From NCBI GenBank assembly GCA_964360095.1, contig CAYHVY010000001.1, positions 1-37,603 on the forward strand: DNA of 37,603 nt. The letters run 5' to 3'. Shown one piece after another: positions 2,095 through 37,603 of this stretch. Every line of letters begins with the position of its first letter. The first letter of the stretch is position 1. The notes below the pieces were generated by a model. That model searched no databases. It had not been told where the DNA came from and was given only the letters and a program-made list of their open reading frames with translations. Source of the stretch: an uncultured Candidatus Peribacteria bacterium. GTDB taxonomy: Bacteria; Patescibacteriota; Gracilibacteria; UBA1369. Both the position numbers and the translations under genes were made by a program.

Positions 2095-5000
2095 ATGCAT
2101 AAACGTCACATCCTCAAAGTCGGCATCATTATCCTGGTAACGCTCATTCTGGGCTTTATTGATTTGCCGTCAGAAAAGCAGAAAAAGCTCTTTCCGCCTA
2201 CGCCACAGGCAATCCAGGACAGCAAATATCATTTGGGTCTGGATTTGCAGGGAGGATCTCAGCTTGATTACAAAATTGACCTGCGAAAAGTTCCCGAAAA
2301 GGATCGGAAAAGCATTATTGAAGGAGTCAGTAACGTCATCAACACGCGGGTCAACGGTTTAGGCGTATCTGAACCAAATATTTATCTTTCTTCCGTCGGG
2401 GATGAACAACATCTTATTGTTGAACTCGCCGGCATAAAAGATCTGGAAGAGGCTAAAAAGGTAGTTGGGAAAACAATTCAGCTGGAATTTAAAGAGCAGC
2501 GCGGCACTGAAGATACGGAAGCCCCTAAAAGAGCAAAAAACGCGGCCCAGGCGCTTCTGGACAAAGTAAAAGCCGGTGGCAATTTTGATGTTCTGGGCAA
2601 AGAAGAGTCTCTTGGAAATCCCGGAAAAGTGACTTTTCAGGAGGTTGATTTTCAGTATAAAGATCAGGTGCCATCGGCTCTTGTAAATGACCTTTTTAGC
2701 GCAAAACCCGGAGAAATTCTTAAAAACATCATTGAAACAAGCGGTGAATACAGTATTGATGCAACAGGTCAATTAGCGCCAAGCAAAGGGCACAATGTGG
2801 TAAAATTGCTGGAAAAACGCGACCAAAAACGTGAAATAGATGAAAAACGCGAAGTAACTGTGAGTCATATTTTAGTTGCATACAAGGGCGCGGAACGGGC
2901 GGATTCCGCCGTAACGCGTACTGAAGATGAGGCCAAAAAACGCGCCGCAGAAGTTCTGGAAAAATTGCAAAAGGGTGGAAAATTTGATGAATTGGCAAAA
3001 CAATATTCGGACGACAAAAGCAATAAAGACAGGGGTGGGGCTTTAGAGCAGGCGGTTAAAGGTGAAAGCCAATACGCGAAAGAATTTGAAACCGCCGCTA
3101 TGGCATTAAAAAAAGTTGGAGATCTATCCCCTGTCACAAAAACGTCTTTTGGTTTTCATATAATCAAAGCGGATAAAATCAAAGAAGCCTTAAAGGAGAC
3201 AAGAACCGAACCGCAGGTAAAATATACGAAGATTTTTTACAGTGCGGCATCAGATCCATGGCAGGATACGGAATTAAGCGGAAAACACTTCACACACGCT
3301 GACATTCAATATGATCAGCTTTTCAATCCATATGTATCCATTCAGTTCAATGATGAAGGGGCAAAACTTTTTGAAAAACTCACTGAAAAAAATGTCGGTA
3401 AACCATTGGCCATTTTTGTTGGAGGACAGCTTATTTCTGCACCAAACGTGAATGAAAAAATCAGCGGAGGTAAAGCTCAAATAAGTGGCCGTTTCACATT
3501 GGAAGAAGCCAACAAGCTGGCACGCGACCTCAATACCGGAGCAATACCGGCCCCAATCGTCTTGGCCGGTCAATATACGATTGGAGCGACACTTGGGCAG
3601 GATGCTCTTAATAAAAGTCTTTTCGCGGGCAGTATTGGCTTTCTCCTGGTCGCTCTGTTTATGATTCTCTATTACCGTCTGCCAGGCCTGCTGGCTGTCA
3701 TCGCTCTCACGATCTACGCAATTTTAATGCTGTTCCTGATTAAAACTGCCATGCCGCTCTATTGGTCTCTCCCGATATCCGTGGCTGCATTTGTCTTTTT
3801 AGTGATGAAGATTCTTCGTTCCCGCGAATCAGGGGCCGAAAAAGCAATTGGACTTGTTCTTTCCTGTTTTGTGCTTTTCTTTCTAAGCTTCCTGCTTTCA
3901 ACACCGGTTGTAATGACATTGGCTGGTATCGCCGGCGTTGTTTTATCCATTGGTATGGCCGTGGATGCCAATATTCTTATTTTTGAAAGGATAAAAGAGG
4001 AACTTCGTGATGGACGCACTCTGAGCGCGGCCATTGAAGTTGGCTTTGACAGGGCATGGAATTCCATCCGGGATTCAAATTTTTCTTCTCTCATCACCTG
4101 CGGAATTCTTTTTTATTTTGGAAGTTCCATTATTCAGGGTTTTGCTTTTAACCTTGCGGCGGGTATTTTGGTTTCCATGTTTACAGCCATTACCATTACA
4201 AAAACCTTTATTTCCGCTCTGATAAACACAAAATTGGCCAATAACTTGTGGCTTTTTGGAACACCAAAGAAAAAAGAAAAGAAATTATTGCCGATTATTC
4301 CAAACAGAAAAACCGCCTACATTGTCTCACTGACTGTATTGGCACTGGCTCTCATTAGCATACCCGTTTTTGGGCTTAAATTGGGGCTCGACTTCACCGG
4401 AGGAACGCTGATGGAATTCAAGTTTCAAAAGGCTGTTAATGTTTCGGACATAGAAAAAGCTTTTCAGGAAAGTGTTCAAATATTAAATCAACAAAAAGAT
4501 AAAAAAACTGAGAGTAAAATTGACCCCGGAACTCCGCACATAGTTCCAAGCGAACAGGGATTTATTGTGAAAACACGCCATATCAGCTCGGAGATTCACG
4601 ATCTTTTGATTCCGGAACTTAAAAAGAAACTTGGGGCGTTTGAAGAAACACGCTTTAATACTGTAGGCCCGACTGTTGGAGAAAGTCTGCGTTGGCGCGC
4701 GACATTGGCTGTGGCGGTCGCCAGCATAATGATTGTGCTGTATGTCGCTTTTGCTTTCCGCAAAATTCCGCGTTATGTAAGTAAGTGGCGTTTTGGAACG
4801 GCCGCGATTATCGCTCTGTTGCATGATTTGGGCATCATGCTTGGGGTATACGTATATTTTGGAGTATTTTTTAACGTTGAAATTGACGCGCTTTTCATTA
4901 CAGCAATGCTGACAATTCTTGGATTTTCGGTCCATGACACCATTGTCGTTTTTGATCGTATCCGCGAGAAACTCAAATATCAGAAACATGATGAAAGTTT

Positions 5001-9001: not shown

Positions 9002-12000
9002 ATGGGAGAGTTTGATCTACAGAAAGCCGATATTATAACAGTAGAAAAACAAGCTGGCGAAAAGAAGCACGAATCTTTGCAGCAAAAATTACAGACAAAT
9101 CGTGATCTTTTCACGAGCCATACAGATAAAGTGGAAAATGCTCTTGCTGATGCTCTAAAAAGTTTGACGAGTCAGGAAGCCAAAGACGCTTTAAAAGCTG
9201 ATCAAACAAAGATTCGTGATTTTTTAAAAAGTGTTGCCGATAAAGGGCGTTCAATTTTGAGCGGCAAGGAAGGGGCAGAATCGGTTGATCAAATGATTGA
9301 AGGTCTGCGGAGTGCCATTAAAGATGCCAAAAATAATATAGATTTTTATACAATACTGGATAAATCAAGAGAGCTGGCCAAGGCATCCATACCGGGAATC
9401 AAACTCGTCTACGATCTTCAGGCAAAAGGCGGGTCCGACATTGATAAAAAAATGGATAAAGCCACCGACCAGGCACTGGGTGATCTTCAAGTCGCGCGCA
9501 ACATGTTTGACGCATACAAAGACAAGGCTCTTCCGCAGACCCTGAAAACCATCTACGATGCTGAACTCAAAAAAATTGATGATCAGATAGCAAAAATCCT
9601 GCAAATAAGAGAGGCATATACAGACATTGCGGGAAAAGAAAAAAAACTGGCGGAAATTGAGCAATATTTCAATAATGACAATCTTACGAAAAATTCCAAT
9701 CTTGCAAGAGGGCAATTCGATGATATCGTAAAAAGCAAGAATCTTGCGCCGGAAAGGCTTACTGTCAAGCTAAAATCAATGGGGGAGCAGGCCGATAAAG
9801 CCTTGACTGACCTATGCAAGATCAAAAAAGAGGCCGTTGGCGTTAGTCGCGATGCGCTACTTCCAGATCAACAAAAAAAATATGACGAAATTGTAAAAAA
9901 ACTGGGCGAGCAATTGCAGGAAATGACGGGTTTAAAGGTATATGCCAAAAACCAGGAATTGATTGATCGTGTAAATAAAACTGAAGGCGGCAAATATCTC
10001 CAAATGGAAAGTAAAGTGATCAACGGGCAATTCGTGACTGCGGTTACATTTACAGAAGAATTCCAAAAGTTGCCGGAATTAAAGCAGCAGGAAATCAAAA
10101 TGGCTTTGCAAGGCGTATCTTTTGAAGTCGCCCTTGATGTTGCCAAAAAAACAGGCCTTCCGGAAGATAAATCCTGGCTTGAGGGTCAACAAAAATTGGA
10201 TAAAGGCGATCGCGCAGGCGCAAAAGCGTTGTTTCTTGATTACGTTGCAAAGTTTAAAAATAATCCAGAAAAAAGGCTTCAAGTCGAAAATGCAAAAGGA
10301 ATGTTGCGCGCGATTCTAAGAGAAGATTTAAACCAGGTAAAAGAACATTTTAGCCTGATAAAACAAACGATTGAAGGGCGAGGCGGCGGAGTAACGGGTA
10401 AATTTGACGAACTGCGCAGCGTTCACGACAAACATGGCAGACTTGATGCTGTTAATGGCTTTATAAAGCAAGCGGAAGGATTGATTGCGAGCGGAGAAGC
10501 GCTAACAATTGACGAGATTTACAAAAAACTGCCGAAACTCAAGGACAGTATTGATTTGAAGAGTGACGGAATTTCTATGTTGGATCCCTTTGAACAGCAG
10601 CAACTTTTGAATGAGGCCGATCCCGCAAAACGGCGTCAAAATATTTTAAAACTTGCAAGGGCAGCTAAGGCTGTGGAGTTGACAGCTTTATCTGCAAAAT
10701 ATTATGAAATGTATTTTGCGGATCGCATTGACGGTGCAAAAAAAAGCATCAGCCGCGAGAAGATAAAAGCGGATATTGATCAGGAAGAACTTACAAGCAG
10801 TGAATTTAGAGCGGAAATAAAAGCTCAAATCAAATCATTTCACGACAGCGCAAGACAAAAATTCATGGATGAATATTACAAAGAGCATCCTGGGGCGAAA
10901 AATCCGGCTCTTTCTAAGGACGATCCAGAGGTTAAAGCAATGAAAGCGGCTGAGGAAGCATGGGATAAAAGCTACGACGCGCAAAAGGGAAATGTTTATC
11001 AACAAGCTAAAGATGTGTTGATTGACATTCGATATGACAAGGCTGCAAAAATAGCTATCCATAAAGGAGTTGAAGCTATCACAAGGAGTGGGAGCGGCAT
11101 GACGGCGACAGAAGACGAAAAGATATGGAAAGAAGCCTATGGAAACATAAAAGGAAATGTGGAAAACATAACGGGCGAACACCTGGTTTTTACGCAGGAT
11201 GATTTTTATGAATTGCAAAGCAAAATGGCGGGTTCAATTTTAACAATGGAAATTGCCACACTGGCCGCGATGACAGTGGCAACAGGAGCTTCAGCGGCAA
11301 TCGCAGGTGGAGCATTAACTTCAGCCGGCGGAGGAACTGCCGGATTTTTAATTGAGGGATTGGTAATGCACAGCACAACCGCTTATCTAAATGAAGGCAA
11401 AATTGACCTTTCTTCACCGGAATTTTTACGGGGATTGGCGTCAACTTATGCGACTTTGGGGATTATGAAGGCGACAGGGCTTGGAGGCAACGTTAAACTC
11501 GGGGGCAAAGCGCCATCTGCGGTTGCGGAAAAAACAGCTTCTAGCGCAATTGCTACCGTAGCAAAAGGCGGCGCTGAATTTTTGGGAAAAGTAACCCTGG
11601 ATTCAACTTTAATGACAGGATTAAGTACTCTCGAACGCGGAATAGTAGACAAAAAATGGGCATCCTTTGATGAAATGGCCGGCGAATTCGGCAATAACGC
11701 CATCACATTCCTCGTCATCGGAGGATTGCATAAGGTAGCGGAGGAGAGGGCCCCAACAAAAAAAGGAATAGCTGATACAAAAGCGCCAACGGAACATGCC
11801 AGCAGGGCGTACAGGGAGGGTACGGTAGTGGCTGAACTTTCCATGGCAGATCGAAAAAATATTGATCATAATCCCAAAAATCAGCCGCATGATACAGAAC
11901 TTGAGGCAATTATAAAAGATAAGAATGAAGTCGAATCAGATTATAATAATATGAAAAAAAGACTTAGAAGTTTGCGGGATCAGGCTAATCTCGATCTAAT

Positions 12001-16167: not shown

Positions 16168-18231
16168 ATGGCTAATATATATGCTGAAATTCTTTTATCA
16201 CGAAAAGTGGGAACAAATACCAACACTTTGACATACAGGGTGCCGGATGGACTTAAAGCTGTGCTTCAAAAAGGCAATATTGTCGGAATTGGCTTAAGAA
16301 ATAAGAAAACACGTGGTGTCGTAGCTAGTATTCATGAACATAAACCAGCATATGAAACGAAAGAGATTCTTGAAGTCGTTCAAAAGGCGGCGCACCTGAG
16401 TCCATGGCAGATTGAACTTCTTTTTTGGATGTCTGATTATTATTTTTGCCCTCCGCACAAGGTTTTAAAACTGTTTTTCCCAAATACGATCAGTCAAAAG
16501 AAAAAGCTGCCGCAGTGGCTGCCAAACGCGGAAGAAACACTATGTCAAAATCAAGGTAGGGAACAAAAAATTTTGTTCCCTACCTTGATTTTAACGACAG
16601 AACAGGAGCAGACCTTTGAAACCATCCTTAAAACGAACAAAAAAACCATTCTTTTGCACGGTATTACCGGTTCAGGAAAGACCGAAATCTATCGCCGGCT
16701 TGCGGCAAATCAAATTCAACAAAACAAACAAATACTGATTTTGGTACCGGAAATTTCATTGACTCCTCAAACTTTTCAGAATTTCAGGGAAGAATTTGGC
16801 AACGCGATTGCCCTTCTCCACAGCCAATTAACTGCAAAAGCAAAAGAAAAACATTGGTATGACATTTACCACGGTGAAGCAAAGATCATCATTGGATCGC
16901 GCTCGGCGCTGTTCGCGCCGTTCGCCGACTTGGGCATGATTGTGATGGACGAAGAACATGAATTTTCCTATAAACAGGACCAGTCGCCGCGTTATCATGC
17001 CCGGGATGTCGCTATAAAAATGGCTGAACTTTTAGGAATAAAATGTGTTTTAGGAAGCGCCACGCCTGCGCTGGAAACATATTACAACGCCGCTCAAGGC
17101 CACTATGAGCTGGTTACATTAAAACAACGCATACAAAAGCAAAACATTGTGACGCTGCCGGCGGTTACAATCATTGATCTGCGGGAAGAAATCCGCAAAA
17201 AAAACTTTTCCATTTTCAGTGAACTTCTCATCCAAAAAATAACCGAAAAACTTGAAAAACAAGAGCAGATCATTCTTTTTTTGAACCGCCGCGGCGCCGC
17301 CTGCGCCATCCTGTGCCGGGAATGCGGACATATTGAAAAATGCGACAACTGCGATGTGGCCATGACATATCATAAAAACTTAACGGTAGAGAGGGTGATT
17401 TTGCCAGCACAAAGGCTTATTTGCCATCATTGCGGAAGTATAAAAAACATTCCCCTGCTCTGCCCAAAATGCGACAGCGCTTTTATTCGCTACATTGGTC
17501 TGGGCACACAGCGCATTGAAGAAGAGATTAAAAAAATATTTCCAAAAGCGCGCATTTTGCGGGCTGACAAGGACACAACCAGCCAGCGCGGCAGCTTTGA
17601 AAAGCTTTACAATGCGTTTAAAAATCATGAGGCGGACATTCTTATTGGCACACAGATGATTGGTAAAGGCCTTCATTTGCCTCAGGTCAGCCTGGTTGGT
17701 GTTATTTTGGCTGATTTAAGCCTGACTATACCGGATTTTCGGAGCGCAGAGCGGACATTCCAGATTCTCACGCAGGTAGCGGGCAGAGCCGGTCGGGAAG
17801 CCAAAAAAGGCGAAGTCGTCATTCAGACTTATTTACCGGAAAATTATGCCATTCAAAAGGCAATAGAACACGATTATGCGGGTTTTTTTGAGGAGGAAAT
17901 GAAAGTCCGAAAAACGTTCGCGTATCCTCCAATAAATAAACTCATTAAATTGACTTTTATTGATAAAGATGCCAAAAAATGCCTACAGAAAGCCAAAAAC
18001 ATGCTGGACATTCTCAACGAAACCGTTCAAAAAAATGATCTGAAAAACGCCGTAACATCTATAACAAATTATCCAGCTCTGATTACAAGATTAAAAAATG
18101 AATACCGCTGGCATATCTTAATCACCGGCCAAAATCCTGCTTTGTTGCTGAAGGGTGTCTCTGAAAATGGATCAAAAATCCTGCATGATGTGGATGTAAG
18201 GATTGATGTAGATCCGACGAGTGTTGTGTAA
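16168..18231 (+). CDS. priA: Primosomal protein N' (replication restart helicase PriA)
   Basis: Walker A is GITGSGKTEIY and the DEEHE box is present. The Cys-rich zinc region reads CRECGHIEKCDNCD...CHHCGS...CPKCDS. Confidence 0.9.
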   Translation: MANIYAEILLSRKVGTNTNTLTYRVPDGLKAVLQKGNIVGIGLRNKKTRGVVASIHEHKPAYETKEILEVVQKAAHLSPWQIELLFWMSDYYFCPPHKVLKLFFPNTISQKKKLPQWLPNAEETLCQNQGREQKILFPTLILTTEQEQTFETILKTNKKTILLHGITGSGKTEIYRRLAANQIQQNKQILILVPEISLTPQTFQNFREEFGNAIALLHSQLTAKAKEKHWYDIYHGEAKIIIGSRSALFAPFADLGMIVMDEEHEFSYKQDQSPRYHARDVAIKMAELLGIKCVLGSATPALETYYNAAQGHYELVTLKQRIQKQNIVTLPAVTIIDLREEIRKKNFSIFSELLIQKITEKLEKQEQIILFLNRRGAACAILCRECGHIEKCDNCDVAMTYHKNLTVERVILPAQRLICHHCGSIKNIPLLCPKCDSAFIRYIGLGTQRIEEEIKKIFPKARILRADKDTTSQRGSFEKLYNAFKNHEADILIGTQMIGKGLHLPQVSLVGVILADLSLTIPDFRSAERTFQILTQVAGRAGREAKKGEVVIQTYLPENYAIQKAIEHDYAGFFEEEMKVRKTFAYPPINKLIKLTFIDKDAKKCLQKAKNMLDILNETVQKNDLKNAVTSITNYPALITRLKNEYRWHILITGQNPALLLKGVSENGSKILHDVDVRIDVDPTSVV
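16547..16592. repeat. 46-nt near-perfect palindrome (REP-like GTAG...CTAC hairpin) in frame inside priA
   Basis: AAAATCAAGGTAGGGAACAAAA-aa-TTTTGTTCCCTACCTTGATTTT has 22-nt arms. It encodes QNQGREQKILFPTLIL in the linker before the helicase Walker A. Confidence 0.8.
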
Positions 18232-20135: not shown

Positions 20136-21758
20136 ATGATGAGAGAAACTAAGTATATTTTTGTCACGGGCGGTGTCTGTTCTTCCCTTGGAAAGGGCAT
20201 TGCCACCGCTTCTATTGGCGCTCTCCTCAAGGCTTCCGGATTTAAGGTCTTCACGCAGAAACTGGATCCATATTTAAACGTGGATCCCGGCACAATGAAC
20301 CCGTTTCAACATGGTGAAGTTTATGTATTGCAGGATGGCGCGGAAACAGATCTTGATCTTGGACATTATGAACGTTTTGTAGGAGAAAATCTCACCGAAG
20401 TTTCTTCCGTTACCACGGGGAAAATTTATTCACACGTAATCAGTGAGGAAAGGAAAGGCTCTTTTCTCGGAGGAACCATTCAAATTATTCCGCATATAAC
20501 CAACGCGATTAAAAAACGGATTAAGGATGCCGGCAAACAGAATGAAACCGACATTGTGCTCATTGAAATTGGCGGCACAACCGGCGACATTGAAGGACTA
20601 CCATATCTGGAAGCCATTCGCCAGTTGCGGCACGAATTGGGTCACAAAAACACGCTTTTTGTGCATCTTACCCTATTACCCTATCTCGCCGCTTCAAAAG
20701 AGCTTAAAACAAAGCCCACGCAGGCTTCCGTGCGTGAATTGCGCGCTACAGGTATTCAGCCTGATTTTATCCTTGCGCGCGCCGACTATCCAATTCAAAA
20801 AGAGCTTCTCAAGAAAATTGCTCTTTTTTGTGATGTGGATGAAGAATGCGTCATTCCGGCGCCAACTGTGGTTTCCATTTATGAAGTTCCGATTAAATTC
20901 CAGGAACATCATCTTGCGGAACTGATTGGAAAAAAACTTGATCTTGGAAACATAAAACCAGATCTGAAAGAATGGGAGGGATTGGTAACAAAAATTAAAG
21001 CAAAAAGAAGCAAAATCAAGATAGCGCTGGTGGGGAAATATACGGGCCTTGATGATTCTTATTTGAGTGTGGTGGAATCGCTAAAAATCGCATGCTACCA
21101 TCAAAAAAAAGACCTTGATCTTAAGTGGATTGATTCTGAAAAGTTGGAAAAAAATGATCCTTCAGCGTGGAAGCTGTTAAAAAGCGTTTCAGGAGTGATT
21201 GTACCCGGCGGCTTTGGCTTGCGCGGGATTGAAGGCATGATAATGACGGCAAAATATTGCAGGGAAAAACGCGTACCATATCTTGGACTTTGTCTTGGGA
21301 TGCAAATTCAAACCGTTGAATTTGCGCGGCACGTATTCAAAGATGAGCGTTACACCTCCGAAGAATTTGACGAACAGGATAAACTGCCGTCTGAATTTTA
21401 TGTGATCCATTTCCTACCCGGACAATATAAAGAGCGCGATAAAGGCGGAACGCTGCGTCTTGGAGCATATCCATGCAAATTAACCGGTGGCACAAAAACA
21501 TATCGCCTTTATAGGAAAAGCATTATTGAAGAGCGACATCGCCACCGCTATGAATATAACAATGCTCTTCGCAAAAAACTTGAAAAAGCCGGCCTCATAA
21601 CCGCGGGAATTTTCCCGAAAGGCAATCTTGTTGAAATTGTTGAATTGAAAAATCATCCATTCATGATCGGTTCACAGTTTCATCCTGAATTTTTATCACG
21701 ACCAAACGAGCCGCATCCCTTGTTTAAGGGTTTTATTGAAGCAAGCAGCGCGAAATAA
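20136..21758 (+). CDS. pyrG: CTP synthase
   Basis: N-terminal KYIFVTGGVCSSLGKG, GATase motif GLCLGMQ and HRHRYE are all present. The start codon abuts the trpS stop. Confidence 0.95.
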   Translation: MMRETKYIFVTGGVCSSLGKGIATASIGALLKASGFKVFTQKLDPYLNVDPGTMNPFQHGEVYVLQDGAETDLDLGHYERFVGENLTEVSSVTTGKIYSHVISEERKGSFLGGTIQIIPHITNAIKKRIKDAGKQNETDIVLIEIGGTTGDIEGLPYLEAIRQLRHELGHKNTLFVHLTLLPYLAASKELKTKPTQASVRELRATGIQPDFILARADYPIQKELLKKIALFCDVDEECVIPAPTVVSIYEVPIKFQEHHLAELIGKKLDLGNIKPDLKEWEGLVTKIKAKRSKIKIALVGKYTGLDDSYLSVVESLKIACYHQKKDLDLKWIDSEKLEKNDPSAWKLLKSVSGVIVPGGFGLRGIEGMIMTAKYCREKRVPYLGLCLGMQIQTVEFARHVFKDERYTSEEFDEQDKLPSEFYVIHFLPGQYKERDKGGTLRLGAYPCKLTGGTKTYRLYRKSIIEERHRHRYEYNNALRKKLEKAGLITAGIFPKGNLVEIVELKNHPFMIGSQFHPEFLSRPNEPHPLFKGFIEASSAK

Positions 21759-21764
21759 AACGTC

Positions 21765-21804
21765 TTTGTTGTAGAGCGCAGGCATGCCTGCGCTCTACAA
21801 CAAA
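21765..21804. repeat. Perfect 40-bp palindrome (GTAG...CTAC core) downstream of pyrG; possible terminator or REP-like element
   Basis: TTTGTTGTAGAGCGCAGGCATGCCTGCGCTCTACAACAAA equals its own reverse complement. The ATG at its centre is the track start (21784) of the next ORF. Confidence 0.8.
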
Positions 21805-32736: not shown

Positions 32737-32765
32737 GTAAGGAACGGTTTGAAACCGTTCCTTAC
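32737..32765. repeat. 29-nt GTA...TAC hairpin between the riboflavin kinase stop and the murE start
   Basis: GTAAGGAACGGTTTGAAACCGTTCCTTAC has the same length and architecture as 37170-37198. It contains the riboflavin kinase TAA stop. Confidence 0.75.
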
Positions 32766-33139
32766 GGTATTTTAACCACCATCTTAATTTTTTTAACATC
32801 ATCCGCAAGCTGTTTTTTGAGACTTTCAACAGTGCTAAAATCTTTTGTTTTTCGGATTTTTTTGAGGATCTCCACGCGCACTTTCTGCCCATACAAATCC
32901 CCTTCAAAATCCAGCAAATGAACTTCAAGAGATGGCTTTAAAATGCCAAATATTGATATTGGACCAAAATGCAGCGCTCCAAAAAAAACACCTGTTTGAG
33001 TATACACTTTGGCAGCGTAAACACCAAAAGGCAATTCAAGCTTACCGTAAGCCAAATTAATGGTCGGAAAACCCAATGCATTCCCCTTGCCCATGCCACG
33101 AATTACTTGACTGGCGATGATTTTATATATTTTTGGCAT
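32762..33139 (-). CDS. Riboflavin kinase (stand-alone RFK domain, no FAD synthetase domain)
   Basis: GMGKGNALGFPTINL and LEVHLLDFEGDLYGQKVRVEIL motifs are present. The ATG at 33139 overlaps the upstream gene's end by 17 nt. Confidence 0.8.
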   Translation of the reverse strand: MPKIYKIIASQVIRGMGKGNALGFPTINLAYGKLELPFGVYAAKVYTQTGVFFGALHFGPISIFGILKPSLEVHLLDFEGDLYGQKVRVEILKKIRKTKDFSTVESLKKQLADDVKKIKMVVKIP

Positions 33140-34451
33140 TTGACCGGGAGGATAGTGGCAACAAAACAATCGCTACGATAAGCCAAAATAAAAGCGCGAG
33201 ATCGTTTTTAAAAAATGGGGTGTCAAAAAAGCCGTGAAAAATTATGATAAACAGCATAAAGAAGGCAATAACTTTGATTTGGACAAAAGAATCAAGGGTG
33301 TGTTTGTGAAATGTTTTTACGAGGGGCCAAATTTTGCGGATACACAAAACAATAATCCATAGGAACGCCGCTAGTCCAATCAACCCCAGATTCAGCCAGA
33401 AAGCCAAAAATAAATTATGTGGATGCAGCATGTTCCACTCATACGGCGCGTGCCCTAGAATACGGGGCGCTTCCAATTGATAAAAAACCGGAAATTGTCC
33501 TAACCCAAGGCCTAAAAAGGGATGTTCCGCGATAAGACGCATGGCAATCTGATAAACCTCAAGTCTAACTGCCGAAGAGGTTCTCTCAGTTATAACGGTA
33601 AACGTTTGCCATTTCACGGGATCTAAAAAAATAACAATCAGTATAACCGCAAGCGAAAAAGCAATAATACCAAAATATAATCTCTTGCGGGAAAACAATC
33701 TGTATCGCAAGGATAAATAGCATATAACAGCAATTATAACGGCCATAATCGCCGCATATGATTTTGTGAATAGCAAAGCCAAAGAAAGCGCTATAAAAGC
33801 CATGAAAGCGTCAAAAGCAAAATCTTTTAATCGCGTGAATGTGTAAAAAACAGCCGGCGTAAGGTACAAAGCAAGATAATTGGCGGAAATAAAAGGGCCG
33901 GAGGCGCGCGCGTCATCGGTAATATAATGCCTGGTTATAACCTGATATAAAGCCCATAAAGCTAGTGGCATGCAGGATAAAGTATAGAAATTCAAAAGTT
34001 GCCTAAAATCTTTTTCTTCACGCAGAAAAAAGGCAAAAAGTGAGAACATGAGGAGCGGCGCAACAATCCAGCCTTTTAAAATACCAAAAGCGATTTTTTG
34101 CGACTCAAAAAGCGTTTTCCCGTCAATCAAAAACATTTCTTTCGGAACAATCAAAGCTGAAATAATTGACGCAAACAGCACGAGCGCTATAGGAAGCCAA
34201 ATTTTATCACAAAATATAGACCATTGTATAAAAAATTTATTCAGTATTAAATGGATAACGAGAGCAGAAAAAGTAACATAAATCAGGCATTCAATCACGG
34301 TAAATGGAATTCCAGCAATTTTAAAATTCAACAAATATGCCGGAAAAAACAAAGGCAAAGCCAAAACAGCCCATTTCGGCTTAAACAGAGCAAAAATAAA
34401 ATATGCGACTATTAAGACATAATACAAAAAGGTTTGCGAAGCAAACTCCAT
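33123..34451 (-). CDS. O-antigen ligase / Wzy_C-family polytopic membrane protein
   Basis: The protein has 10 or more TM segments. The loop motif HPHNLFLAFWLNLGLIG resembles the Wzy_C signature. Confidence 0.65.
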   Translation of the reverse strand: MEFASQTFLYYVLIVAYFIFALFKPKWAVLALPLFFPAYLLNFKIAGIPFTVIECLIYVTFSALVIHLILNKFFIQWSIFCDKIWLPIALVLFASIISALIVPKEMFLIDGKTLFESQKIAFGILKGWIVAPLLMFSLFAFFLREEKDFRQLLNFYTLSCMPLALWALYQVITRHYITDDARASGPFISANYLALYLTPAVFYTFTRLKDFAFDAFMAFIALSLALLFTKSYAAIMAVIIAVICYLSLRYRLFSRKRLYFGIIAFSLAVILIVIFLDPVKWQTFTVITERTSSAVRLEVYQIAMRLIAEHPFLGLGLGQFPVFYQLEAPRILGHAPYEWNMLHPHNLFLAFWLNLGLIGLAAFLWIIVLCIRKIWPLVKTFHKHTLDSFVQIKVIAFFMLFIIIFHGFFDTPFFKNDLALLFWLIVAIVLLPLSSRSNAKNI

Positions 34452-35989: not shown

Positions 35990-37603
35990 CTACGGTTTCT
36001 GACGAATTATAATATCCAAATTAGCTCCCGGAATATCCACCACGCGAATACCACGTAAAAGGGCTTCGTAATTTTTCTCAATGGCTTCAATACGAATATC
36101 CAGTTTTTTTACCGCTTTTTCGTAAAAATCCAGAATCTGCTGTAGAGCCGAAAGACGAGCTTTTAAAGCTGTCTGTTTTTGAGCAACATCAACAAAACTC
36201 TGAAGTAGAAAATTTGCTTTTTCGCCGGCAAGACCTTCCAAAGACGCAAAAAAGTCCTGTTCAAGATTTTTTCTGTCAGGTCCAAGACTGTTAAAAGAAA
36301 TCTTCAAATCATCAATCTGCAAACCAAGTTCCTTAATAATTCTCGCGCTATTAGTGCGAACATTTTTAATTTTGCCAAGATAATCGGCAAGTTTAGAATC
36401 GCGCTGCGATGTCTGGTTTAACATGGCATACACATCTGTATCATACAGACTTTTGAGCTCACGGAGATTATGAATATACTCAATAAAAAGAGTTGCTCTT
36501 GCAAGCATATCTTTATATTGTCCATAATGATAAGCGGCCGTAATACCTGTTTCGCCTGCGACTGCAGGCTCGGCAAGTTTTCCAAAATAAAAGGCGTTTT
36601 TTATTGATGGAGTAACAACGTCTGTCAACGAACCGCTGTTTTTCGCAAAGATATAAGCGGTTCTGATTCCCCACGCGCGCAAAAATCCTTCATCTACACG
36701 GATTTCAACTGGCGCGGGAGGTGTTTTTGATTGGAAAAAAGCCATTATTTGACCATATGCAGATCTGCCGATATTGACCGCGATCCCGCTCGCAAACAAA
36801 AATCCCAAAAAAACAACAACTGCTGTAAGAACCACATATTTGAGGCGCAAATGCGCTCCCGCAAAAGCGGCGCCGTTTCCAAACTTTTTCTTAAAACCCG
36901 CTGAAAAACTGCCGCCAACCCCGGCTTTGGCCGCACCGCCAGTAGATTTTTCCTGTATTTCAGCGGCCTCAGCATGATCACTTAGCTCCTCCTGCGTAGA
37001 AATCTCCTGCTGATTGATAGGCACGGATTCTTCCACAAATTCTTCCTGCTCAATGATTTCAGGAGCGGTATTTTCCTCGGCTTCAGTAGGTGCGGGCTTC
37101 AAATCCACCCCTACGTCATGGGATGGAAAAAGCTCCGGAAATGGCTCTTTTGCTTCGTATTCGGGAGAGGTAGGGGCAGGTTTCAAACCCGCCCCTACCT
37201 CTTGAGGTTCAGGCTGCGGTTCTGGAGGCACGGACACGAATTCAGATTCCGGCTGGACAGTTGAAGGTTGAATATCGGACAATGACGGCTCTATCACGGC
37301 AGGCTCTTTTTTCGCTTCTGGTTCTGGCTGCACCACGGAACGCGGATCCGAGTTCCCTACGTCAGGGTTTTTTAATTCTTGCGCTTCTTCTGTGGAATGA
37401 AGGTCTTCGTTCCCTACGTTGGTTTCTTGAGGCGGAGGTCCAATGAAAGTGTGGTGCTGAACAGACGGATAAATGTCTTCCAGGGACTCCGTCAACGGCA
37501 AAGGCGCAAGATCTTGTACCTCTGCTTTTTGCGATTCCGATCCTGGTTCTAGCGGTAATTGTGTTTTTTCCTTTGAAGTTTTTTTAACTGTTTTTTTCTT
37601 TTC
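35990..37603 (-). CDS. Hypothetical membrane-anchored protein with a Pro/Glu-rich N-terminal region (5' end outside the window)
   Basis: The frame stays open from the TTG at 37501 to the window edge (EKKKTVKKTSKEKTQLPLEPGSESQKAEVQDLAP...). It has one TM segment (YVVLTAVVVFLGFLFASGIAV) followed by a helical C-terminal domain. Confidence 0.6.
   Translation of the reverse strand, partial: EKKKTVKKTSKEKTQLPLEPGSESQKAEVQDLAPLPLTESLEDIYPSVQHHTFIGPPPQETNVGNEDLHSTEEAQELKNPDVGNSDPRSVVQPEPEAKKEPAVIEPSLSDIQPSTVQPESEFVSVPPEPQPEPQEVGAGLKPAPTSPEYEAKEPFPELFPSHDVGVDLKPAPTEAEENTAPEIIEQEEFVEESVPINQQEISTQEELSDHAEAAEIQEKSTGGAAKAGVGGSFSAGFKKKFGNGAAFAGAHLRLKYVVLTAVVVFLGFLFASGIAVNIGRSAYGQIMAFFQSKTPPAPVEIRVDEGFLRAWGIRTAYIFAKNSGSLTDVVTPSIKNAFYFGKLAEPAVAGETGITAAYHYGQYKDMLARATLFIEYIHNLRELKSLYDTDVYAMLNQTSQRDSKLADYLGKIKNVRTNSARIIKELGLQIDDLKISFNSLGPDRKNLEQDFFASLEGLAGEKANFLLQSFVDVAQKQTALKARLSALQQILDFYEKAVKKLDIRIEAIEKNYEALLRGIRVVDIPGANLDIIIRQKP
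37086..37114. repeat. Degenerate copy of the GAGLKPAPT-type hairpin element, in frame
   Basis: GTAGGTGCGGGCTTCAAATCCACCCCTAC encodes VGVDLKPAPT on the minus strand. Confidence 0.6.
37166..37202. repeat. 37-nt REP-like hairpin (GTAG...CTAC) in frame inside a CDS
   Basis: AGAGGTAGGGGCAGGTTT-C-AAACCCGCCCCTACCTCT has a single A/C mismatch that becomes a G-U pair on the coding (minus) strand. It encodes EVGAGLKPAPTS. Confidence 0.8.

Follow-up and report, generated by a model that had tools for sequence, protein, structure and literature searches.

An in-frame palindrome in priA of a Peribacteria bacterium is probably a mobile double-foot REP element linked to a tyrosine transposase clade

Introduction

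How does a long and perfect DNA palindrome come to lie in frame inside an essential gene? The question is raised by priA in a 37,603-nt stretch of DNA from an uncultured Candidatus Peribacteria bacterium (GenBank assembly GCA_964360095.1, contig CAYHVY010000001.1; hereafter the window, to which all coordinates without a contig label refer). A preliminary description of the window had pointed to a 46-nt palindrome within the priA open reading frame (ORF). It had proposed that a mobile or copy-prone hairpin, akin to the GTAG-headed repetitive extragenic palindromic (REP) elements of other bacteria, had colonised the gene without breaking its frame. REP elements and their REP-associated tyrosine transposases (RAYTs) are known mainly from Proteobacteria, Cyanobacteria and Bacteroidetes.

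Our results support this proposal: a REP-like mobile hairpin appears to have colonised the essential gene priA in frame, as the insert is lineage-specific, belongs to a multi-copy family and is linked to a RAYT. The palindrome is very probably a double-foot GTAG REP, that is, a non-autonomous hairpin of 28/29 nt that is processed by a RAYT of subclass 2.4 and tolerated in a linker of PriA. The likeness to GTAG-headed REPs holds as to kind but needs one correction, in that the GTAG foot stands on both sides and both feet are paired, as in the double-foot type. Systems of this kind have been published before, both as double-foot GTAG REPs with subclass 2.4 RAYTs and as intragenic REPs. What is notable here is the host, a member of the candidate phyla radiation (Peribacteria), together with the high intragenic fraction, the dynamics of flanks and replacement, and the presence of the element in phage genes. 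Below, G000 denotes this genome, a 1.0-Mb assembly of 118 contigs that is 94% complete, and G001 its sister species.

Results

The palindrome at 16547–16592 is real. Its 22-nt arms, AAAATCAAGGTAGGGAACAAAA and TTTTGTTCCCTACCTTGATTTT, pair completely around a 2-nt centre (AA), so that the palindrome is perfect, and the repeat reaches 25-nt arms at 16544–16595 when one mismatch is allowed. Within the priA ORF it is translated as QNQGREQKILFPTLIL. Folded as single-stranded DNA (ssDNA), the region has an energy of −23.8 kcal/mol, compared with −4.75 ± 1.97 kcal/mol in shuffled sequences (z = −9.7), and none of 200 shuffles matches it. The window holds four palindromes with arms of at least 14 nt, against 0.24 with arms of at least 10 nt in mononucleotide shuffles of the same stretch. 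The stem had been compared with that of a second hairpin at 32737–32765 (GTAAGGAAC...GTTCCTTAC), and this comparison is correct: the foot differs by one compensated pair, G-C to A-T. The unit is the 28-nt core, and the outer 9 + 9 nt of the priA palindrome are host-derived flanks that have evidently been made complementary. These flanks match native priA codons of the nearest outgroups (N-K-N on the left, L-T-L on the right).

Structures of PriA in the Protein Data Bank align to residues 20–112 and 159–657 of the priA product, and residues 113–158, which contain the insert, are unaligned. This unaligned stretch is a variable linker that leads from the winged-helix region to the helicase core, ahead of the Walker A motif, in agreement with the earlier placement of the insert just upstream of the helicase start. 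Nothing we have seen suggests a visible function of the insert for PriA, and it is best described as tolerated DNA in a variable linker.

Alignment of PriA orthologues, which had been proposed as a check, shows that the insert is confined to this lineage. In 20 other genera PriA is 9–10 residues shorter exactly at this point, and the segment is missing from PriA of 18 genera of the family and order. The closest outgroups, found among Peribacteria and Peregrinibacteria genomes and metagenome contigs at 63–66% identity, read ...KKKKLHEWIPxEE...KK/LTLTxDQ. In them the distance from KKKL to L[TI]LT is 15–16 residues, compared with 25 here, a net gain of 9–10 codons. A metagenome scan with PriA returned relatives of at most 65% identity and no further members of the genus. 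The sister species G001, whose PriA is 84% identical, has an insert at the same site in diverged form (GTACGGAACAAAGATTTTTGTTCCATAC), and the insertion is therefore older than the split of the two species. In this orthologous REP of G001 (contig C88, locus L002; priA codons ~132–150) the feet are mismatched (GTACGG...CCATAC), as in a decaying copy that has retained the frame, and the element contains a 27-nt tandem duplication (ATEQRFLFH GTEQRFLFH).

Since the genome is a fragmented metagenome-assembled genome, the palindrome might in principle be an artefact of assembly or amplification, such as a chimeric fold-back. However, the sister genome with a priA copy at the orthologous site was assembled independently, and the family recurs in other genomes and in viral contigs, as described below. 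We therefore give an artefact almost no credence.

The priA palindrome belongs to a large family. Genome-wide, G000 contains 98 hairpins with stems of at least 14 nt, ~80 of which have GTAGGGA...TCCCTAC feet, including the variants GTAAGGA and GTAGAGA. The preliminary description had named recurrence of the stem elsewhere in the genome as a check, and the pattern GTARRGR-N14/15-YCYYTAC indeed matches 75 times in G000, compared with 0 matches for a reversed control pattern. Unit length is strictly 28/29 nt: the feet are 14 nt apart in 49 copies, 15 nt in 26, 16 nt in one and 17 nt in one, and never 13 nt. The GTA at foot positions 1–3 in all listed copies is imposed by the search pattern, which leaves position 4 free to be G or A; this position is G in 64 and A in 15 of 79 copies, in keeping with a GT[AG]G foot. 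Independent support for the GTAG foot comes from the sharp spacing peak at 14/15 nt and from the zero matches to the reversed control.

Perfect palindromes account for 48 of the 79 copies, yet left arms differ between copies at a mean of 5.3 of 14 positions. The inner 14/15 nt form subfamilies, the largest being ACGGTTTCAAACCGT (11 copies), ACAAAAATTTTTGT (8) and CGCATTGCAATGCG (7). Where stems are mismatched, A.C pairs (16) are as frequent as G.T pairs (13), and there is thus no sign of selection on an RNA hairpin; no Rfam family matches the hairpins. The window itself contains four good copies, beginning at 16556, 21771, 32737 and 37170, and two decayed ones (Table 1).

A large fraction of the family lies inside genes. 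With ORFs taken from stop to stop at a minimum of 150 aa, and counting copies that lie at least 45 nt inside either end, 34 of the 79 copies (43%) are intragenic. The ORF copies occupy phase 0 (GTA GGG; 26) or phase 1 (xGT AGG; 13) and never the third phase, in which TAG would be read. Hosts identified with Pfam are a Mur ligase, transketolase (tkt), UvrC (two copies), LigA (in the helix-hairpin-helix region), DnaE (HHH_6 and OB fold), RecF (SMC_N), YbeY, FBPase, a Der-like GTPase, FemAB, a nucleotidyl transferase and a polysaccharide pyruvyl transferase; a further host, a Walker-A/DEAD helicase-like protein, was recognised by eye only. Relative to G001 or to outgroups, the net gains are in frame and amount to 8 aa in UvrC, 6 in Tkt, 10 in the helicase-like protein and 11 in the nucleotidyl transferase.

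Several hosts act in replication or repair: priA in the window and, on G000 contigs C10, C66, C28, C32 and C72, dnaE, ligA, uvrC twice, recF and the DEAD-type helicase-like gene. Di Nocera et al. 2013 (PMC3733652) likewise observed intragenic REPs in replication and repair genes.

Hosts of this kind (priA, dnaE, uvrC twice, ligA and recF) could indicate that the hairpins are selected host cis-elements, such as terminators, protein-binding sites or uptake-signal-like sequences in genome-maintenance genes, rather than selfish repeats. The maintained complementarity of the arms would fit this explanation, as would a GTAAGGA-foot subfamily that is intergenic, mostly lacks flank extension and in some copies is followed by T-runs. 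Nonetheless, the 43% of copies within ORFs occur in genes of unrelated function, 201 of 205 related genomes do without the element, and unrelated cores occupy orthologous sites (see below). With neither the mismatch counts nor Rfam pointing to a role at the RNA level, we consider selected cis-elements very improbable.

The distribution of the family across the order is narrow. Among 205 genomes, G000 has 75 copies, G001 has 65, and G068 and G070 have 10 each; the other 201 have 0–2, which is the control level. G068 and G070 belong to a different family, and their 28-mers are identical to ones in G000, for example GTAGAGACGCATTGCAATGCGTCTCTAC. A single perfect family member (GTAGAGAACAAAAATTTTTGTTCCCTAC) was also seen in G025 (contig C5, 39306–39333), an other-family genome that is otherwise without the element and without the RAYT clade described below.

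The element is also present in phages. A scan of IMG/VR for GTAGGGA-N14-TCCCTAC gave 92 matches, 24 of them with palindromic cores, where ~0.1 would be expected by chance according to our own arithmetic, and several of these copies are identical to copies in G000 or G001. One of the contigs, L314 (IMGVR_UViG_3300012020_000309), encodes a terminase, a portal and a Mu-F-like protein and is a genuine phage. Its three REP copies (at 1145, 3254 and 3455) all lie within ORFs, including those of the terminase and the Mu-F-like protein. Another, L340/L356 (IMGVR_UViG_3300021189_000109), has at least five copies and encodes a CI-like repressor, an AAA_22 ATPase and an ORF6N domain protein. The viral contigs have no DNA similarity to G000 or G001, and the stretches examined encode no RAYT.

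A candidate enzyme for the family is found in its relatives. The preliminary description had suggested a search for a RAYT gene; this assembly yielded none, but several copies are present in the sister species G001, and the same clade occurs in two other element-carrying genomes. In G001 there are two full RAYT-like ORFs of 175 and 186 aa (Table 1), 59% identical to each other, and three RAYT fragments where contigs end, a pattern suggestive of a multi-copy gene at which assemblies break. All of these copies have ~70 nt of upstream sequence in common. The proteins match Pfam Y1_Tnp at 29.3 bits (cut-off 23), and among NCBIfam models NF047646, 'REP-associated tyrosine transposase', fits them best by a wide margin (E = 4e-16). 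A weak RAYT tblastn match on contig C30 of G000 was rejected as a transposase, since it falls in a thyA-folA region.

The motifs of the G001 proteins are NHFH/NHVH, WQ and YIINNP/YIINNS. These equal the signature of TnpA_REP subclass 2.4 (RAYT group 4), namely NH[IFV]H, WQ and YIxNNP, a subclass that goes with 'double foot' REPs having 5' GT[AG]G and 3' C[TC]AC feet (Quentin et al. 2018, PMC6006769). Within the order, the clade (E ≤ 1e-5) is confined to G001, G068, G070 and G028. It is thus present in three of the four genomes with at least 10 elements, compared with one of the 201 others (Fisher p = 1.1e-5). The REP has moreover entered the transposase gene itself. In the G001 ORF at C8 10211–10768 an intact element (10432–10459, read VGNADLRSL) lies in frame between the HuH motif and the Y motif, and in G068 an element (C4, 19946–19973) falls, judged by coordinates, within an open 219-aa frame, in the gap that separates its two RAYT alignment segments. 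In one G001 RAYT copy a REP-like doublet lies directly upstream of the common promoter-like region, which is not the case in the other copies.

Biochemically characterized TnpA_REP enzymes of E. coli, Stenotrophomonas and Marinomonas bind folded ssREP, with GTAG as a recognition or guide motif, and cut on the 5' or 3' side of the hairpin at CT (CA in Marinomonas) (PMC8266576). The cleavage leaves a 5'-phosphotyrosine link and a free 3'-OH that can be used for transfer or for priming synthesis (PMC8266576). In our family, the dinucleotide 5' of GTAG is TT (50) or CT (44) in 59% of 158 arms.

Comparison with G001, which covered 140 of ~170 contigs, indicates how the elements are joined to their hosts. 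Beyond the feet, 85% of copies have complementary flanks, typically of 6–9 nt and at most 15 nt, which are different at every locus. At C44:6401 a 12-nt insertion corresponds, in reverse complement, to CTAC and 8 nt of the right flank, and at C28:4334 (uvrC) GGTTTT repeats in inverted form the right flank AAAACC, of which AAAAC is native. Native sequence forms 8–11 nt of an arm at three sites (DnaE, C27:7970 and G001 L032:11336), for which a rough estimate of chance is ~0.02 and which we take as suggestive only.

Two simple accounts of these flanks were tried and rejected. A target preference for pre-existing hairpins is not seen, as 11 clearly empty orthologous sites resemble nearby control windows both in best stem (4.27 vs 4.43 nt, p = 0.65) and in folding energy (p = 0.26, n = 11); the palindromic flanks therefore arise with or after insertion and are not chosen. 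Pure insertion of the element plus an inverted flank copy also fails, because the summed lengths in ORF copies, worked by hand, are not enriched for multiples of 3, so that target bases must also be lost or overwritten.

The flanks also bear on two explanations that dispense with a RAYT. In the first, the element would be a minimal miniature inverted-repeat transposable element, in which the two terminal inverted repeats of a DDE-type insertion sequence abut and which moves by cut-and-paste. Its short perfect inverted repeat, conserved at the outer ends and variable at the inner ones, is what one would expect, but there are no direct target-site duplications, the flanks being inverted complements and not direct repeats, and we saw no parent insertion sequence. 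The foot is instead the GT[AG]G tag that defines REPs, and the associated enzyme is a HUH Y1 transposase, which makes this origin highly implausible.

In the second, palindromes are made and spread without a transposase by replication template switching, whether as quasi-palindrome correction or as fold-back synthesis, and the link to the RAYT is coincidental. Much of the flank evidence is of the kind this would produce: locus-specific flanks that are nonetheless complementary in most copies, a flank that is an inverted copy of the native other flank at C44:6401 and C28:4334, and native sequence in the arm at the three sites named above. G000, moreover, is without a RAYT. On the other hand, identical 28/29-mers occur at many unrelated loci, one core in 11 copies, and identical units are found in a different family and in phage contigs. 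Foot sequence and length are also strict, and the element co-occurs with one RAYT clade. Template switching alone accounts for the growth and perfection of hairpins, not for the dispersal of a defined unit, and as a sole origin we judge it unlikely.

Orthologous sites point to turnover of the REPs themselves. For 44 G000 copies with orthologous flanks in G001, 30 sites are without a recognisable element there and 14 are occupied in both species, where ~0.3 coincidences would be expected from element density (our arithmetic). At none of the 14 co-occupied sites is the core the same, and in four of these pairs each copy is a perfect palindrome with a core of its own, as with ACAGGCATGCCTGT and CGCAAAATTTTGCG at C14:13898. 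G000 and G001 each have their own dominant subfamilies. The different cores at shared sites argue that resident REPs get replaced by other family members, which may in turn reflect the REP-REP recombination carried out by TnpA_REP in vitro (PMC8266576).

The coordinates of the features are collected in Table 1.

Table 1. Positions of the priA palindrome, the other copies in the window and the full RAYT-like genes of the sister species
Feature	Location	Strand	Remarks
28-nt double-foot REP core, GTAGGGAACAAAAAATTTTGTTCCCTAC (GTAGGGA-N14-TCCCTAC)	window 16556..16583	.	phase 1 in priA, read (G)REQKILFPT
Full perfect palindrome: core plus 9-nt flanks AAAATCAAG / CTTGATTTT	window 16547..16592	.	
priA ORF, 687 aa, intact	window 16168..18231	+	E = 2.8e-115 to Klebsiella PriA structure 4NL4
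Second copy, GTAGAGCGCAGGCATGCCTGCGCTCTAC, perfect palindrome extending to 21765-21804	window 21771..21798	.	13 nt past 540-aa ORF 20136..21758
Third copy, 29 nt, GTAAGGA foot	window 32737..32765	.	fills spacer between two minus-strand ORFs
Fourth copy, 29 nt, one A.C mismatch	window 37170..37198	.	in frame in minus-strand ORF 35990..37603, read VGAGLKPAPT
Decayed copy, 10/14 positions paired	window 37086..37114	.	inside ORF 35990..37603
Additional decayed copy	window 37333-37360		
Full RAYT-like gene, G001	contig C8 (L028) 10211-10768		
Full RAYT-like gene, G001	contig C48 (L068) 2185-2709		

Some further observations concern single loci. The third copy in the window makes up the entire 27-nt spacer between its neighbours: its GTAAGG foot provides the TAA stop (32762–32764) of the upstream ORF 32762..33169, and the ATG of the next gene lies 2 nt beyond the element. 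On contig C32 of G000 (~2550–2660), a tandem array of half-elements (GGGATTGTCCCTACAATT, ~4 units) stands beside an intra-ORF REP copy and is read as a repeated peptide. At loci L105, L127, L057 and L043 of G001 there are GC-rich insertions of ~50–60 nt (...GAACGGGTCTCGTGGGTTCCCG..., ...GGGGGCCCCCGCGAAAGCGGGG...) where G000 has none, and G000 orthologues of such sites are at C11:9485, C14:3840 and C59:3958.

Discussion

Our assignment of the priA palindrome to the double-foot REPs starts from direct observations: the family and its copy number, its restricted distribution, the lineage-specific insertion, the co-occurrence with a RAYT clade and the REPs within the RAYT gene. Several findings weigh against it. 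Pfam Y1_Tnp has no match in the G000 assembly, and no RAYT gene or fragment was found there, in an assembly that is 94% complete and consists of 118 contigs. In G001, the RAYT is multi-copy, unlike the usual single-copy RAYT; its proteins score 59 bits against NF047646, under the curated equivalog cut-off of 80, and a search by sequence for solved structures found none. The junctions, too, are irregular. Compared with G001, the net change in length is anywhere from 0 to +33 nt, and in DnaE, a glycosyltransferase, MurC and LigA the element appears to have taken the place of a similarly long native stretch instead of being simply inserted.

On the reading that we prefer, a double-foot REP processed by a subclass 2.4 RAYT, the known biochemistry of the enzyme family suggests that a Y1 (HUH) transposase of this subclass would process the element as folded ssDNA and would move or replace the hairpins. 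Because the element is symmetric, both strands would offer the same substrate. One such element entered the priA linker that joins the winged-helix region to the helicase core before the two species split, adding a net 9–10 codons. It has persisted there because the frame was kept, the TAG-containing phase was avoided and the linker tolerates the extra peptide. The complementarity of the flanks may result from fold-back synthesis, either by template switching or self-primed, that copies one flank to the other side. If self-primed, such copying could start from the RAYT-cleaved 3'-OH at the foot and would then yield a target duplication that is inverted instead of direct. Resident REPs would give way to other members of the family without a change of site.

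In a broader model, the REPs would turn over by wholesale swapping of resident copies, would extend themselves outward by copying host flanks and would be carried from one host family to another by phages that have the same 28-mers in their terminase and head genes. We put this combined model forward tentatively and think it possible rather than likely. We found no description in the literature of REP turnover by swapping, flank copying and phage ferrying. The filled, empty and replaced sites of the two sister species could help to settle how REPs spread.

Our work also has implications for the annotation and biology of these genomes. Inserts of 9–10 residues such as VGNG.KPFPT, GREQKFLFPT and similar peptides are to be read as parasitic DNA rather than as lineage-specific protein features. 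REP/RAYT systems extend to the tiny genomes of the candidate phyla radiation. Since these genomes have little intergenic DNA, the hairpins persist in large part inside genes, among them essential ones for replication and repair, as extra loop peptides.

Among known systems, the palindromic elements of Rickettsia offer a functional resemblance only, as palindromic repeats that lie in frame in essential protein genes of a small genome. Rickettsia RPE-1 is a longer palindromic insertion, unlike the 28/29-nt, GTAG-footed and RAYT-linked element described here, and we know of no dedicated transposase for the Rickettsia palindromic elements. The REPINs of Pseudomonas (Bertels and Rainey 2011, PMC3116915) are likewise hairpin-forming and non-autonomous and are thought to be moved by RAYTs, whereas the unit here is a single compact palindrome that is replaced wholesale at orthologous sites between sister species. 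The GTAG-tagged REPs surveyed by Di Nocera, De Gregorio and Rocco (2013, PMC3733652) are multi-copy palindromic repeats of 20–40 bp with a GTAG tag, a definition that our family fits. They also resemble it in that some copies lie in frame inside genes, many of these in replication and repair, and in that subfamilies are set apart by complementary changes in the stem. In canonical REPs, however, the tag is unpaired, stands at one end only and the elements are mostly extragenic (PMC3733652), whereas here the tag is paired at both ends.

The closest match is with the double-foot GTAG REPs of TnpA_REP subclass 2.4 (Quentin, Siguier, Chandler and Fichant 2018, PMC6006769). Those elements have the same 5' GT[AG]G and 3' C[TC]AC feet, go with a Y1 transposase bearing NH[IFV]H, WQ and YIxNNP, and show a scattered distribution resembling horizontal transfer, as here. 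The element in priA and its relatives depart from that description in their Peribacteria host, their strict length of 28/29 nt, the ~43% of copies within ORFs and the locus-specific palindromic flanks, and their RAYT departs from it in that the sister genome has several copies and G000 yielded none.

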